This document shows positions 1 to 6,000 of a stretch of DNA of 11,741 bases, piece after piece; within the stretch, counting starts at the first letter, position 1; every line of letters begins with the position of its first letter. The stretch is from Chthonomonadales bacterium (lineage in GTDB: Bacteria; Armatimonadota; Chthonomonadetes; Chthonomonadales; CAJBBX01): the NCBI GenBank assembly GCA_037443035.1, contig JBBIPC010000018.1:72060-83800 (forward strand), given 5' to 3'. The position numbers are program-made.

Positions 1-3000
1 TCGGCTGCCCCTGCGTCTGCCTGTCCTGCGTCTTCTTGGGCCGCCGCTCCGGCCGCGGCTGCGGTTTCGATAGGCATCGCCTTGGTCTCCACCGTCTCGA
101 CCGTCACGAGGTGCTTGACGGCGTTGACCATTCCGCGCACCTGGGGATTGTCGGGATGCACTACCGTCTTGTGCATGCGGCCCAGGCCAAGTGCACGTAT
201 GGTCCTCTTCTGGCGCTCGGCAAAGCCAATGGGGCTCCTCCGGAGCGTCACTCTAAGCTTCGCCATGTTCCGCCTCCACGACAGGTGCCGTCTCCTCGCT
301 TTCTGCAAGCCAGGGCACCATCTGCCGAACACTCTTCCCGCGCATTCGCGCCACCTCTTCGGGTTGCTTGAGCATCCTGAGTGCGCGCATGGTGGCCCAG
401 GCGATATTGATCGCATTGGAGGACCCTAGGGACTTGCCCAGTACATCGTTGATCCCAGCGAGCTCCAGTATGGTACGCACCGAGCTCCCGGCAACTATAC
501 CGGTACCGGGCGAAGCGGGTTTCAGGAGCACTTCTGCAGCGCCGTGATGCGCCAGCACCTCATGCGGGATGGTTGTCCCCGCAATGGGCACTTCGATCAT
601 GTTTTTCTTTGCGTCTTCCACCCCTTTGCGTATGGCATCGGGAATGGCACGCGCCTTTCCCAGGCCGGCGCCGACCCTTCCATTGCGGTCGCCGACAACC
701 ACGAGCACATTCCAGCTCATTGTCCGGCCGCCCTTGTGGGTCTTCTGGACCTTGTTGGTGCGCACCACGCGTTCTTCAAGGTTCAGCGTATCTGCAGCGA
801 TCCTCGCCATGTCAGAACTCCAATCCGCCTTCGCGCGCGGCATCGGCCAAGGATTTCACGCGGCCATGGTACTTGTAGCCACCCCTGTCGAACACCACGC
901 GGTTGATGCCCTTCTCGATGGCACGAGCTGCGATCAGCGCGCCCACCTGTCTCGCTCCTTCGATATTGCCACCTGAGGTGGAACGGAGCGATGGATCGAG
1001 TGACGACGCTGCTGCCAGCGTCACACCCGCATCGTCGTCGATGAGCTGCGCGTAGATGTGCCGGATACTACGGAACACGTTCAACCGCGGCCGCTCTGCC
1101 GTGCCGCTTACTTTCGCTCTGACGCGCCTATGACGCTTCAGACGCAGTGTCTGTTTCCTATTCATGCTTCAGCCTGTCCTCGTCAAGCAGATTGCCGACC
1201 TGCCTGCCTGTGGGTAATACTCGACGCGAAAGGTAAGTATACCTTCGACCGCAACACCGCTATGGGGCATCCGACAGACCATGGGCGCCTTACTTGCCAC
1301 CGCCCTTGCTGGTCTTGCCAGCCTTGCGCCTGACCGCCTCGCCGCGATAGCGGATCCCCTTGCCCTTGTAAGGCTCTGGTGGACGAAGGCCACGGATCTG
1401 GGCCGCGATCGTCCCGACCAGCTCCTTGTCTATACCGCGAATGACAACAAACGGAAGACGTGTTTGCTGTTCCTGACCGGCCTCGAACTCGATGCCCGGC
1501 GGTGGGGCGATTTCGATTCCGTGCGACAGTCCCACAGTAAGAGCAAGGTTCTTGCCAGCCATACTCGCTCTGTAGCCGGTGCCATACACCTCCAGGATGC
1601 GCGAGTAACCGTTCGTCACCCCTTCGATCATGTTTGCGATGAGGGTGCGAGTAAGCCCATGTGCCGCCCGAGCAGCTTTCGAGTCGTCACGCCTCTCGAC
1701 GAGCAGGGCATCGCCCTCCTGCCGCAGTTCGATGAGTGGCGACATGGTGCGCGTGAGGATGCCCTTCGGTCCTTTCACGGTTACCTTGCCGACCTCATGG
1801 GTTATCTCCACCGCTTTGGGTACGGGAATGGGACGCTTTCCTATACGGGACATGGGTTTCTCCTTACCAGACGTAACAGAGGACTTCGCCGCCTATGCCC
1901 TTGGCCCGTGCGTCTTTGTCCGTCATGACGCCCTTCGACGTCGTCAGGATCGCGATACCCAATCCACGAAGGACGCGCGGCAGCTTGTCCTTTCCTGTGT
2001 AGACGCGGAGGCCAGGCTTGCTCACGCGCTTTAGGTCTGTAATCGCGCGCTCCCGCTGGGGACCATACCGGAGGTAGATCTTGATACGGTCCTGCTTGGG
2101 ATCTCGGGTGATATCGAACCCCTTGATGAACCCTTCCCGGTGGAGGATCTTCACAATCTCCAGCTTGAGCCTACTACTGGCGACCTCGGTCGACTCGTGG
2201 TAGGCCATGTTGGCGTTCCTGATGCGCGTCAGCAGGTCGGCGACGGGATCGGTCGTGTATGCCATGCCGATTCTCCCCTACCAACTCGACTTCGTGACGC
2301 CGGGAAGCAGTCCCCTCAGGGCCATTTCCCGGATGCAGATGCGGCACAAACCAAACTTACGGTGCACCCCTCGCGCTCGGCCACAAACGGAACAGCGCGT
2401 ATAGGCACGCACGCCGAACTTCGGCTTTCGCAGCGCTTTAGCGATGAGACACTTCTTTGCCATGGTGTATTCCCTCCCGTCGGATCCCGGCCATCAGCCG
2501 GAATGGTAACGTGGCGGCTATGATTGCTCCTTGCTCTTCTGGTATTCCGCGATGATCTGCTGGGCGATGTGAGCCGGTACCTCTTCATAATGGGACGGCT
2601 CGATCTCGAAAACGCCGCGGCCACGGCTGATGGAGCGGAGGTCAATGGCGTACCTTAGCATCTCCGCCTGTGGCACGTTCGCTTTGACCTTCACACGTCC
2701 CCCGGGCACCGGCTCCGTGCCGAGGATCCTGCCCCGCTTACCCGAAAGATCGCCCATGACGTCGCCCAACATGCTTTCAGGAACAGTCACAGTCACGGTG
2801 ACAATGGGCTCGAGGATTACGGGGTTCGCCTTCGGCGCAACGTTGTTGAACGCAATGATCCCTGCCATCTTGAAGGCTTGTTCCGAGGAGTCCACTTCAT
2901 GGTACGAGCCGTCATAGCAGGTGCATCGAATGTCCACCATCGGGTTCCCAGACAGGACCCCGTTGGCCATGGCCTCCACAACCCCCTTCTCCACCGCGGG

Positions 3001-6000
3001 TATGTACTGCCTGGGGATCGCTCCTCCAACGATGGCATCCACGAACTCGAAGCCTGCCCCCCGAGGCAACGGCTCCAATCGGATGTGGCAATCGCCATAC
3101 TGTCCTCGTCCGCCGGTCTGCTTCTTATGCCGTCCTTGTCCTTCGGCCTTGCTGAGGATGGTCTCGCGATACGGGACCTTGAGGGGCACGAGATCGACAT
3201 TGGCGCCGAACTTGCGCAGCTTCTCCACGACGATGCTCAGATGGGTCTCTCCCATGCCGCTAAGCACCGTCTGCCCCGTCTCCTGGTCACGACGGTAAGT
3301 GAAGCTGGGGTCCTCAGCAGCCACACGCTGAAGGGCAGGGCCGAGCTTGTCCTCGTCCACCTTTGTCTTTGGCGTCACTGCCACTTCGTAGATCGGTCGC
3401 GCGAACTCCACCGGAGGCAACACGATGGGCTTGGCCGCATCGCAGAGGGTATCGCCTGTCCGAGTAGCCCCGAGCTTGGCCACAGCGCCGATATCGCCCG
3501 CACCCAGTTCGGAAACAGCCTCTTGGTTCTTGCCGCGCACAACGTAGAGCTGTCCGATACGCTCATCCTTGCCGCTAACGGAGTTCAGCACATGGCTGTC
3601 CGAACGAACGACACCGGAAAAAACCCGGAAGTAGGTGAGTTGACCGACGAACGGGTCCGCCAGTGTCTTGAAGACCAGCGCGCAGAAGGGGTCGTCGTCG
3701 GAGGGATTACGCACTGTCTCGGAGCCGTCTCGCGTCGTCCCTCGAACCGGCCCGGCTTCGAGCGGACTCGGACAGGCCGCAACGATGAAGTTCATCAGCG
3801 CCGCCGCTCCCATGTTTCTCGCAGCAGCACCGCACAGCACGGGTACTACCTTTCCCGCCACCACGCCGGCTCGAAGCCCCCGGATGATCTCCTCGTTGGA
3901 GAGGTCCTCGGTCTCGAAGTACTTCTCGATGAGTTCGTCATCACCCTCGGCCGCAGATTCCACTAACATACTGCGGAAACGAGCTACCGTGTCTGCCATT
4001 TCCTCGGGTATAGGCACCTCGTTGAACTCGCGACCGACGCCCTCGTATGCCTTCATCTGTATGAGGTCCACGATTCCCCGGAAGCGCTCTGCCTGACCGA
4101 TGGGGATCTGCACAGGCGCGATGGCGCTCCCATGCACCTCGCGCAGCTTCTCCACGACGGACATGTAGTCGGCGTTCTCCCGGTCCATACGCGAGACGAA
4201 GACCACCCGTGGTCGCCCTGCCTCCACGGCGTGTTGCCATGCGATCTCGAAGCCGACTTCGATGTCCCCCTGAGCTGGCGTGACAAGGACCGCTGTTTCC
4301 ACCACCCGCAGAGCGATCCGAACTTCGCCCTCGAAGTCAAGGTAGCCCGGAACGTCCACGACGTTGAGCTTGGAGTTGCCCCACTCGCAGGGCGCCAAAC
4401 CGATGTTGATGCTGATATTGCGGCGTATCTCTTCGGGGTCGAAGTCCGTGGTGGCAGTTCCATCATCGGTACGCCCCATACGATCGATGGCGCCAGCCGT
4501 GAGCAGCATAGCCTCCGCCAGCGTTGTCTTGCCGCTGCCTTGATGTCCGAACAGACCAACGTTGCGGATTGTCTGAGCGGGGTGTTTCCTCATGAGCTAA
4601 CCTGTCCTTGTTCGCTTCGAGACTTCGTCGTGCACGCTACTTCTGACGGAACGGCATGCCGAGGCCACGGAGCAGAGCCCTGGCCTCCTCATCCGTTCGT
4701 GCCGATGTGCAGATGATGATATCCATGCCGCGCACGCGGTCAATCTTGTCGTACTCGATTTCGGGAAACAGCAGCTGCTCGCGGACGCCTGTGGCGAAGT
4801 TGCCCCTGCCATCGAACGAGTTGGGGCTGATGCCCTGGAAGTCACGAACTCGCGGCAGTGCCGTCGAGATGAAGCGATCGAGAAACTCGTACATCCGCTC
4901 GCCACGCAGCGTAACCTTGCATCCGATCCGCGCCCCTGCACGTATCTTGAAGTTCGATATGGACTTCTTTGCACGAGTGACGCAGGGTCGCTGACCGGCG
5001 ATCAGGCTCATGTCCCGCATGGCGTTGTCGAGCAGCTTCGGATCTCCGCCGGTTTGGCCGGCCTGCCCAACGCCCATGTTCAAGACGATCTTCTGCAGCC
5101 GCGGTATCTGCATGACGTTCTTGTAGCCGAACTCCGCCATGAGAGCCGGGGCGACTTTCGTCTTATACAGTTCCTTCAAACGAGCCATATTCGGTAATCC
5201 TTCGATGTTCGCCCTAGTCGAGCGACTTGCCGCAGTCGGGATGCTTGCAGACCCGGTACTTGCGATGCGCAGGCTTGCCCTCGCCTGGATGATAGGCGTA
5301 GCCTACACGGGTCGGACGCTGGCACTGCGGACAGACAATCATTACCTTGGGTGCGTACAGCGGCGCTGGCTTCTCGATCCGGCCGCCCTCCTGAAGCTGC
5401 TGGACGCCCGAGCGTGTGGTCCGGCCACTCTGCCTAGCCTTCTGGTGCTTTATAATGATGTTCACACCTTCGACGAGGACCTTGTTCACCTTTGGATAGG
5501 CATGCAGCACCCGTCCTCGTTTTCCTTTGTCCTTGCCGGCAATGACCTGAACCTCGTCGCCACGTTTGATACGCAGCTTCGCGGCGTACTCGCCCGGCTT
5601 ATACTTGGTCGGCATCAGAGCACCTCCGGAGCAAGCGAGATGATCTTCATGAAGTTGCGGTCGCGCAGCTCTCGCGCCACCGGGCCAAAGACGCGGGTGC
5701 CACGCGGCTCGCCGCTGTTGTCCAGCACGACACAGGCGTTGTCATCGAACCGAAGCACGGAGCCATCAGGCCGCCGCACAGGCTGTCGGGTCCGCACCAC
5801 AACGCACTTCACGATGTCGCTCTTCTTGACTTGCTGGCCCGGCGTGGCGGACTTGACGACCCCCACGATGATGTCGCCCACCCGCGCCGCCTTAGCGTTG
5901 GAGCCCTTCAGGACGCGCACGCACATGATCTCACGAGCGCCACTGTTGTCGGCTGCACGCAGCCGTGTGTATGGTCGTACCATGTCGTCCTCTCAGATCA

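Follow-up and report, generated by a model that had tools for sequence, protein, structure and literature searches.

The window analysed here, an 11,741-nucleotide stretch of DNA from a Chthonomonadales bacterium, carries the second of two full-length EF-G genes of this genome: it lies in the spc operon, and fusA is on another contig (C22). Judged by its sequence, the 691-aa paralogue is an ordinary member of the already described EFG II (EF-G2) family. The protein itself and its missing catalytic histidine were known before; the new part is the seat of the gene in the ribosomal-protein cluster, a position that is undescribed. The role we think best explains the data, with slightly less than an even chance of being right, is that of a dispensable, slow, GTP-sparing auxiliary translocase, which would be co-transcribed with the ribosomal proteins.

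The EF-G II gene and its neighbours

The gene order on the minus strand of the window, to which all positions below refer, is uL14-uL24-uL5-EF-G-uS14-uS8. The first-pass annotation had correctly placed a full-length, 691-aa EF-G between uL5 and uS14 in the spc operon: the reading frame (2518..4593) has no internal stop, and the frame, NCBIfam models, an AlphaFold model and trees identify it as an EF-G II (EF-G2, fusA2-type) gene with five EF-G domains. The AlphaFold model has a mean pLDDT of 90, and its TM scores against ribosome-bound EF-Gs and EF-G2s are 0.81-0.93. The upstream neighbour (4637..5188), which we take to be rplE (uL5) from family resemblance and operon order, has a single ortholog per genome in 30/30 genomes; the downstream neighbour (2278..2463), presumably rpsN/rpsZ (uS14) on the same grounds, is of the short four-Cys form. 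By sequence scan, the 43-nt spacer between uL5 and EF-G II (4594..4636) contains the Shine-Dalgarno-like AAGGACAGG at 4601-4609, and the 54-nt spacer between EF-G II and uS14 (2464..2517) contains a small hairpin and GGGAGG. A promoter and terminator scan of positions 2200-5300 gave matches at shuffle level only, with no terminator match in either of these spacers and no promoter match in the 43-nt one. There is no structured leader in the 43-nt spacer (folding z 0.05, no match to a leader model), and Rfam searches of the window and 11 loci yielded 0 matches.

Canonical fusA lies, as had been stated, in the str operon on C22, behind uS12-uS7, and is 44.1% identical to EF-G II (about 45% had been given). 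In the alignment, the G1 motif (P-loop, 4525..4548) reads GHQGSGKT against AHIDAGKT in fusA; Gly16 is an EFG II marker, and the Ile-Asp pair of fusA, which in EF-G1 is reported to contact the sarcin-ricin loop, is replaced. G2 (switch I, 4408..4425) is RRNISI, of the RxxSI type described in Margus 2011 (PMC3150367), with Ser61 for Thr and Arg58 kept (RNISI vs. RGITI in fusA). G3 (switch II, 4342..4356) is DVPGY vs. DTPGH, Tyr84 (codon 4342-4344) occupying the position of the catalytic His, and G4 (4183..4194) is SRMD vs. NKMD, with the Asp kept. In domain IV, loop I (3094..3132) is RHKKQTGGRGQYG and includes the Lys-Lys of EFG II; loop II (2881..2907) is SYHEVDSSE, which like QTGGRGQYG is identical in fusA, so the earlier description of DVPGY combined with intact domain IV loops was accurate.

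Assignment to the EFG II subfamily

All 13 published EFG II diagnostic residues, hand-mapped through an alignment with T. thermophilus EF-G, are present: 6/6 at the Type I positions (Gly16, Leu25, Ser61, Thr291, Gly333 and Lys352, here G16, L25, S61, T310, G354 and K373) and 7/7 at the Type II positions (Asp216, Val250, Leu264, Lys471, Lys472, Glu513 and Gly603, here D218, V252, L266, K490, K491, E535 and G625). The EFG II pattern xxxSx in place of RGITI is found as RNISI, and G1 (GHQGSGKT), G3 (DVPG) and G5 (GAA) are retained. G4 is SRMD where NKxD is expected; Arg replaces Lys in 18/66 of the copies located between uL5 and uS14 (site A, see below), and the prototypes deviate too (TKLD). The genome also has the companion EF-G that goes with EFG II, namely fusA in the str operon, the paralogue being outside that operon. 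One tree separated 82 II-type rows from 4 EFG I rows (SH-aLRT 100) and a single branch of a FastTree tree divided 212 II-type from 52 EFG I rows, the named EFG II prototypes being left out of both. The phylum-wide copies were not monophyletic in the free tree, and their monophyly was not rejected by the test.

The best NCBIfam models for the paralogue are PRK12740.1-5. NF009381, the best scorer, was discarded as a membership test: against a cut-off of 583 bits the paralogue scores 914, but the own fusA also passes (828), thus the model does not discriminate EFG II. The paralogue passes the EFG I model TIGR00484 as well (710 vs. 659), through overall similarity only, and AHIDAGKT, RGITI, DTPGH and the seat in the str operon are all missing, which excludes an identity as EFG I. 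The spdEFG2 (mitochondrial EF-G2) proteins, in the published definition, have canonical G motifs with His and are found alongside spdEFG1 in genomes that lack EFG I; the paralogue is set apart from them by motifs and gene content, lacking the His and coexisting with EFG I. The paralogue also stays under the NCBIfam cut-offs for the ribosomal protection proteins TetM/TetO/Otr (279 vs. 775, 195 vs. 900 and 171 vs. 1100 bits) and for Bacteroides EF-G2 (NF058620, 584 vs. 1000 bits).

The missing histidine

It had been proposed that the Tyr impairs the GTPase. Ribosome-stimulated GTPase activity is probably reduced, judging from the reported near abolition of GTPase by H88Y in M. smegmatis EF-G1, but the loss of His is nothing special. 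DxPGY is present in 30/30 of the best loci (this genome and 29 relatives), and His is kept in 0/63 readable EFG II copies from other phyla; a lineage-specific change can be ruled out, His loss being the rule in EFG II of every phylum sampled. The identical substitution is found in the EF-G2 proteins of T. thermophilus (DAPGY) and M. smegmatis (DTPGY).

Between families, domain IV is more conserved in EF-G II than in fusA (65.7 vs. 62.5% identity for copies at site A, 59.1 vs. 52.9% at site B between uS17 and uL14), and the G domain is less so (49.2 vs. 71.0% and 41.4 vs. 64.9%), as is domain III (55 vs. 73%). Relaxed G domain with conserved domain IV is a generic EFG II trait and fits any A-site binder. 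Arg58 is retained in 65/66 site-A and 53/54 site-B copies, His565 in all copies at both sites, and Phe87, a residue of the fusidic-acid pocket, in 66/66 site-A copies.

The claim that the protein acts "rather than as a translocase" is not supported. Apart from the conservation of domain IV, a GTPase that depends on the ribosome and low poly(U) activity have been reported for T. thermophilus EF-G2 (PMC3832671, PMC3150367), and multiple rounds of translocation with slow release for E. coli H92A (PMC12775393). Because both GTP hydrolysis and translocation have been reported for a Tyr-bearing factor, that of Thermus, the Tyr does not prove that EF-G II is no translocase.

Position in the S10-spc cluster

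Of 144 EF-G II copies examined in the phylum, 121 sit in the S10-spc cluster, at two seats three genes apart: site A, uL5/uS14 (67 copies), and site B, uS17/uL14 (54 copies). The division matches the deepest split of the phylum; family f18 has the site-A seat although it is inside the site-B clade, and there were at least two moves between the sites without leaving the cluster. EF-G II is kept in 40/45 families, and 0/68 EFG II copies from outside the phylum have such a placement. In the 30 best loci uL5 adjoins the gene in 29 and uS14 in 27, which agrees with what had been stated about the relatives and their DxPGY. The placement is real, old and lineage-wide. A single "fixed operon position", as given earlier, is not supported: it overlooked the second site, the 20 copies that stand alone and the repeated losses. 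Searches of ten near-complete genomes did not find EF-G II. The operon is broken exactly at uL5/uS14 in families f11 (10/10) and f14 (4/4) and in genomes G254, G050 and G162, and in G036 and G136 other genes occupy the gap.

Stop/start overlap with uS14 occurs in 13/63 site-A loci, the spacers of EF-G II are shorter than 30 nt in many families, and its Shine-Dalgarno strength is similar to that of ribosomal genes. EF-G II is probably co-transcribed with the ribosomal proteins, and its seat between their genes suggests production in normal growth, beyond stress alone. In the passages of Margus 2011 (PMC3150367) considered here, a conserved genome context is given for EFG I alone, with neither a fixed S10-spc seat nor Armatimonadota, and a literature search on elongation factor G in Armatimonadota found no relevant study.

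Codon usage and leader RNA

On a background-anchored scale (0, background; 1, ribosomal proteins) the codon usage of embedded copies was ribosomal-protein-like (0.47-1.67, 13 informative genomes) and that of relocated, stand-alone copies was not (-0.13 to 0.40 in 10 genomes, whose fusA had 0.96-1.36), with a cut-off (0.04) chosen after the data were seen, stand-alone controls from two families and 24/37 embedded genomes uninformative. Low values among embedded copies were found in G053 (0.06), G175 (0.29) and G048 (0.01). The dependence on position may be a regional composition effect. In this genome the bias is weak: when 538 similar-length ORFs are ranked by how ribosomal-like their codons are, fusA reaches the 91st percentile and EF-G II the 30th, a background-like value. 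When fusA and EF-G II were compared pairwise with the local ribosomal genes of 62 embedded genomes, with no background as reference, the two did not differ systematically (family-level p values of 0.91 and 0.14). The stoichiometric expression proposed in the first-pass annotation is not supported, the evidence from codons being mixed.

In the related family f2 a conserved multi-helix leader RNA precedes EF-G II, in long spacers that also have a promoter-like AT-rich element. Its closing stem pairs with the Shine-Dalgarno sequence, which speaks against fixed stoichiometry with the ribosomal proteins. The leader disappears where EF-G II disappears, has no Rfam match and is absent from our window. 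Only position-matched hits were counted, because elsewhere the strict pattern matches at control level. In being a multi-helix RNA in a ribosomal operon with a paired Shine-Dalgarno sequence it is similar to ribosomal leaders and translational riboswitch-like 5' UTRs; unlike these it precedes a translation factor and is lost with it. For the stand-alone f11 copies the opening energy is high, with a median of 8.5 against 4.1 kcal/mol, but we do not claim a structured leader for them (folding z +0.3 to -1.8, no consensus structure).

Possible roles of EF-G II

In the reading as an auxiliary translocase, EFG II entered the S10-spc cluster early in the phylum and was inherited vertically from then on, as the genomic data show, although one origin is not proven; one half of the phylum now holds the gene at uL5/uS14 and the other at uS17/uL14. 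Co-transcription with ribosomal proteins would mean that the factor is made in growing cells. It would bind GTP and the ribosome, its GTPase being poorly activated owing to the Tyr, the altered P-loop and switch I, and the conserved, more basic tip of domain IV would serve as a pawl in the A site. Translocation would be completed slowly, with little GTP turnover, alongside the essential fusA, and by analogy with its relatives the dispensable factor would be ready when GTP or EF-G1 activity drops. In some families a leader RNA may tune its translation separately. The behaviour reported for M. smegmatis EF-G2 (see below), the generic nature of the conservation pattern and the background-like codons of this copy speak against the role. 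It is conceivable, but in our opinion unlikely, that the EFG II of the phylum is a housekeeping ribosome partner kept at growth-coupled levels with uL5 and uS14, which runs much of elongation, or else checks the quality of newly made ribosomes, without spending GTP; the f2 leader would then set the dose by feedback, the signal being EF-G II itself, a ribosomal protein or a nucleotide.

A non-translocating binder similar to M. smegmatis EF-G2, the kind of role read from the gene in the first-pass annotation, would fill the factor site and the A site without GTP hydrolysis and protect idle ribosomes or check new subunits, which would account for production with ribosomal proteins. The shared Tyr, with the reported effect of H88Y on EF-G1, the lost P-loop contacts to the sarcin-ricin loop and the seat among ribosomal-protein genes, away from the str operon, are consistent with such a role, and the f2 translational leader would suit a factor harmful in excess. 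We nevertheless consider it somewhat unlikely: the paralogue keeps Arg58 and the hydrophobic switch I Ile, both missing in M. smegmatis EF-G2, it is much nearer to EF-G I (44%) than that protein is (about 30%), an abundant constitutive blocker would be expected to compete with EF-G and EF-Tu, and ten near-complete genomes appear to lack the gene.

The position could also be historical, an ordinary stress-type EF-G2 having landed in a rearrangement-resistant cluster, with its own promoter or leader setting its level. Repeated exits and losses, the split or filled uL5/uS14 junctions, the long f2 spacers with leader and promoter-like element and the background-like codons in this genome point in this direction. 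Retention in 40/45 families, the moves between two sites without exit from the cluster, the overlaps and short spacers, and codon usage that follows gene position make it improbable. We see little prospect for a factor that releases ribosomes which have stalled or bound a drug, or that gets round EF-G1 inhibition (TetM-like or fusidic-acid bypass): the long dwell expected without His, the changed nucleotide pocket and the dispensable, patchy nature of EF-G II would agree with it, but not the scores far under those required of ribosomal protection proteins (279 vs. 775 bits), the EF-G-like domain IV loops and the conserved Phe87. The recycling role suggested in the first-pass annotation, with RRF as in Borrelia and mitochondrial EF-G2, has a precedent in the divided EF-G duties reported from other lineages, but is very improbable, as those factors belong to spdEFG2, the mitochondrial one reportedly retaining His, the sole EFG II reported as tested for recycling (that of M. 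smegmatis) does not recycle, and the RRF-contacting domain III is relaxed here.

On the role of EFG II the three studied members have given three answers, two of them being portrayed as factors for stress or starvation. Since the gene is kept in the cluster in most of this phylum and has been relocated or lost in sister lineages, the phylum offers a natural experiment on whether a GTPase-poor EF-G works in growth, with a bearing on why GTP is hydrolysed in translocation. The f2 leader offers a direct handle on the signal that calls for EF-G II.

Comparison with known EF-G2 proteins

With EFG II as described by Margus, Remm and Tenson (2011, PMC3150367) the paralogue shares the 13 diagnostic residues, the companion EFG I in the str operon, and relaxed domains I-III with a conserved domain IV; its switch I is of the RxxSI type which that paper reports for Clostridia, Chloroflexi and delta-proteobacteria. 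T. thermophilus EF-G2 (PDB 1WDT, 2DY1) is the best PDB sequence match for the first 140 residues, with Tyr84 at the identical number (DAPGY vs. DVPGY) and GHxGSGKT in both; it differs in its length (665 aa, 39% identity) and more diverged switch I. M. smegmatis EF-G2 (PDB 9K0Z, 9K10) resembles the paralogue in DTPGY, the altered P-loop and G4, and overall fold (TM 0.89 to the model), but lacks the switch I Arg kept in the paralogue's family; it is reported to be stress-specific and non-recycling (bioRxiv 10.64898/2026.05.25.727771), to have no ribosome-dependent GTPase, not to complement fusA(ts) and to bind the unrotated ribosome.

B. thetaiotaomicron EF-G2 (fusA2, BT2167; PDB 8DMF) is an EFG II which, as predicted for the paralogue, is dispensable while fusA is essential; slow translocation that needs no hydrolysis of GTP has been reported for it (PMC12775393). 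It differs in length (718 aa), and the paralogue scores 584 vs. 1000 bits on the model of that family. Under carbon limitation it is reported to be up 238-fold, with fusA down (PMC6989115), a response contrary to the one that placement in the spc operon would suggest.

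The EF-G II gene and its subfamily

The second EF-G gene of this genome (EF-G II, g02345) is an open frame of 691 aa, read at 2518-4593 on the minus strand of the window in the S10-spc cluster; its flanks are uL5 (4637-5188, minus) and uS14 (2278-2463, minus), separated from it by 43 and 54 nt. This ORF reading of the window bears out the seat between uL5 and uS14 described in the first-pass annotation. The genome (completeness 100%) has one further full-length EF-G, the canonical fusA, behind uS12-uS7 on contig C22, which shows 44.1% identity to EF-G II. Alignment of the two agreed with the motif differences reported earlier, among them Tyr for the catalytic His (DVPGY), and with the identity of the domain IV loops. 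The predicted structure of EF-G II is a complete EF-G fold (mean pLDDT 90); the model gave TM scores of 0.93 against ribosome-bound E. coli EF-G, 0.89 against M. smegmatis EF-G2 and 0.81 against T. thermophilus EF-G2. Compared by eye with the usual family lengths, some other proteins encoded on the minus strand of the window were unusual: uL22 (7785-8435, 216 aa in all) has a long Ala/Glu/Thr-rich tail, uL4 (9875-10591) an apparent insert of ~30 aa near the C-terminus, uL16 (6497-6994) an acidic tail, and uL24 (5214-5615) is long, with four Cys near the end.

Judged by its sequence, the paralogue is a member of the EFG II subfamily. Mapped via alignment, it has 13 of the 13 subfamily-marking residues given for EFG II in the pertinent passages of Margus et al. 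2011 (PMC3150367), as well as the RxxSI switch I. Over its first 140 residues it is closer to EF-G2 of T. thermophilus (1WDT) and of M. smegmatis (9K0Z) than to any canonical EF-G; in both of these, Tyr likewise replaces the His (DAPGY and DTPGY, respectively). The phylum name is that given in the first-pass annotation; named Armatimonadota and Fimbriimonadales records were placed within the f11 family group of the tree.

The aligned motifs indicate that loss of the His is the norm for the EFG II family. The 144 copies examined in the phylum have Tyr (120), Phe (16), Leu (5) or Gly (3) at this position; in 68 EFG II loci of other phyla we found Tyr in 35, Asp and Phe in 10 each, Glu in 5, Ala, Ser and Lys once each and His in none, 5 being unreadable, whereas 53 of 54 EFG I sequences had His and one was unreadable. 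Among 150 representatives drawn from a 50%-identity library (23 unparsed, 7 EFG I), 1 of 120 II-type sequences had His. Two families have a changed P-loop and Gly (DTPGG; f10: L063, L068, L082) or Leu (DTPGL; f32: L206, L207, L210, L238) at the His position and are still located between uS17 and uL14, which may represent further decay of the GTPase centre with the site kept. In the f18 genomes G016, G030 and G044, EF-G II is missing some 40 residues of the G' region (positions 162-201 of the profile), and the matches in L027 (G109) and L100 (G162) contain one in-frame TAA each, by decay or assembly error.

Genomic position and loss

The copies, picked non-randomly by score and family from 301 sampled genomes, cover 45 of 45 families. 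EF-G II lay between uL5 and uS14 (site A) in 64, next to a single one of these flanks in 3, between uS17 and uL14 (site B) in 54 and outside the cluster (stand-alone) in 20; in 3 the contig was too short. In other phyla none of 68 EFG II copies (55 with adequate flanks) had a ribosomal-protein neighbour. Such neighbours were found in 10 of 80 metagenome loci, all at site A and with 54-77% identity to EF-G II of the window.

A species tree built from fusA and 11 ribosomal proteins, with each family represented by a single genome and seven partly filled rows as the root, divided the phylum in two. One clade (SH-aLRT 94) unites 19 site-A families with f4, f11, f14 and f28, the other (SH-aLRT 99) 20 site-B families with f6 and f18; the EF-G II tree agreed with the species tree inside each half. 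The free tree search did not recover a single origin of all phylum copies; constraining the tree to one raised its score (p-AU 0.60), thus a single origin was not rejected. Family f18 has the gene at site A, yet three marker sets all grouped it with site-B families, which implies at least two moves of the gene between the two sites; the f18 loci (L081, L232, L242) reflect an independent move or transfer.

EF-G II is dispensable: when a 30-row profile was run on 76 genomes, selected in part because they had one match, 19 gave a single EF-G match, and ten of the 19 consist of 1-5 contigs with 92-99% completeness, the locus read in nine of these being fusA. uL5 and uS14 are directly adjacent in f4 (3/3), f6 (8/8) and G112. 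The junction after uL5 is a recurrent breakpoint, uS14 being absent within 1.5 kb after uL5 in f11 (10/10), f14 (4/4), G254, G050 and G162. In L354-L358, L360-L364, L367, L368 and L370-L374 (from f11 and f14 plus three individual genomes) the spc operon is broken right 3' of uL5. In G050 two ORFs (L057:656-2548, minus), presumably umuD/umuC-like, lie between uL5 and EF-G II. By eye, the uL5/uS14 gap of two genomes missing EF-G II holds methyltransferase-like and glycosyltransferase-like frames (G036, L225:3420-5281, minus) or a signal-peptide-like frame (G136, L226:14171-14797, plus).

The seat of EF-G II in the S10-spc cluster is ancient and, in the open-access literature searched, undescribed; the family and the substitution were already known. 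That search, which covered open-access full text, found no report that places an EF-G paralogue in the spc operon or describes one from this phylum. The relevant part of PMC8046335 treats the cluster for Gammaproteobacteria and Bacilli only, and that of PMC12172202 adds no information on genome context.

A leader RNA in family f2

In f2, a different family of the same order as this genome, the uL5/EF-G II spacer is 199-328 nt long in 10 of 11 measured loci. It contains a conserved element; the 5' arm of this element forms a stem with the Shine-Dalgarno sequence of EF-G II that encloses several hairpins of variable sequence (e.g. L018:3565-3737, minus; L022:1340-1497, plus). In single folds this closing stem was clear in 7 of 8 motif-bearing leaders and partial in G118 (z -1.4 to -5.3). 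Genus g11 has a leader of other sequence (L016:1370-1510, plus; L017; L450) in which the Shine-Dalgarno is still buried (z -3.7, -3.3 and -1.7). A model built from 11 sequences had one match each in 23 of 42 f2 genomes, 22 of them adjoining the EF-G II start (10 of these are training rows), and none in the 6 genomes carrying only fusA. Covariation of the stem is weak: it is near-invariant, and both of its changed pairs stem from a pair of apparently misregistered rows. The leader had no match in Rfam, and folding and model search did not find it in the window of this genome. An AT-rich promoter-like element precedes the f2 leader. We regard the leader as a candidate new cis-regulatory RNA; its pairing with the Shine-Dalgarno argues that translation of EF-G II in f2 is controlled separately from the neighbouring genes.

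Expression and function

With starts placed automatically, the median spacers around EF-G II were 54 and 56 nt in 63 site-A loci and 37 and 34 nt in 54 site-B loci; in 13 of the 63 the EF-G II gene runs into the start of uS14. The Shine-Dalgarno of EF-G II matches those of the ribosomal genes in strength. Codon usage was scored from 0 (background, 8-20 kb of automatically picked ORFs) to 1 (ribosomal proteins) and taken as informative at a separation of at least 0.04, a cut-off set post hoc. Embedded copies scored 0.47-1.67 (median 0.86; 13 of 37 genomes with this separation), stand-alone controls from two families -0.13 to 0.40 (median 0.08; 10 of 13 genomes), with fusA there at 0.96-1.36. 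The low scores in G053, G175 and G048 count against growth-coupled expression, as does this genome, where EF-G II is at the 30th percentile of ribosomal-like codon usage and fusA at the 91st. In f11, stand-alone EF-G II (L061, L067, L071, L072, L083, L084, L086) has an extended -10-like element upstream in 7 of 10 loci; the leader there, short, rich in GC and with a stem of CGCC/GACG-like sequence, folds no better than shuffles.

The first-pass annotation saw in the Tyr a GTPase-impaired ribosome-binding factor rather than a translocase. Its first half is likely to be right: M. smegmatis EF-G1 H88Y nearly loses ribosome-dependent GTPase, and EF-G2 of that species is without it and neither recycles ribosomes nor rescues fusA(ts) (bioRxiv 10.64898/2026.05.25.727771). 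These data also speak for the main rival reading, a non-translocating ribosome binder, which we consider less likely than the reading preferred below. 'Not a translocase' is not implied, for T. thermophilus EF-G2 is credited second-hand with ribosome-dependent GTPase and with a low activity on poly(U) (PMC3832671 and PMC3150367, which disagree on its intrinsic rate), E. coli H92A performs several translocation rounds with slow release, and a Bacteroides paralogue is cited second-hand for hydrolysis-free translocation (both PMC12775393). In His mutants phosphate release is described as suffering more than hydrolysis does (PMC4532990), and a passage of Atkinson 2015 (PMC4342817) considers EF-GII capable of translocation, but that unlikely to be its main function. 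Between families, domain IV of EF-G II is more conserved than that of fusA and domains I-III are relaxed (98 genomes, domain borders set by us). The reading we prefer, at somewhat less than even confidence, is that EF-G II may act as an auxiliary translocase, slow and sparing of GTP, that is produced along with the ribosome.

The switch I residue Arg58 is absent from M. smegmatis EF-G2, whereas the phylum's EF-G II retains it (65/66 site-A and 53/54 site-B copies). According to PMC6989115, fusA2 of Bacteroides is low in growing cells and is induced 238-fold when carbon is limiting; an EFG II whose level is coupled to growth would be a genuine departure from this.
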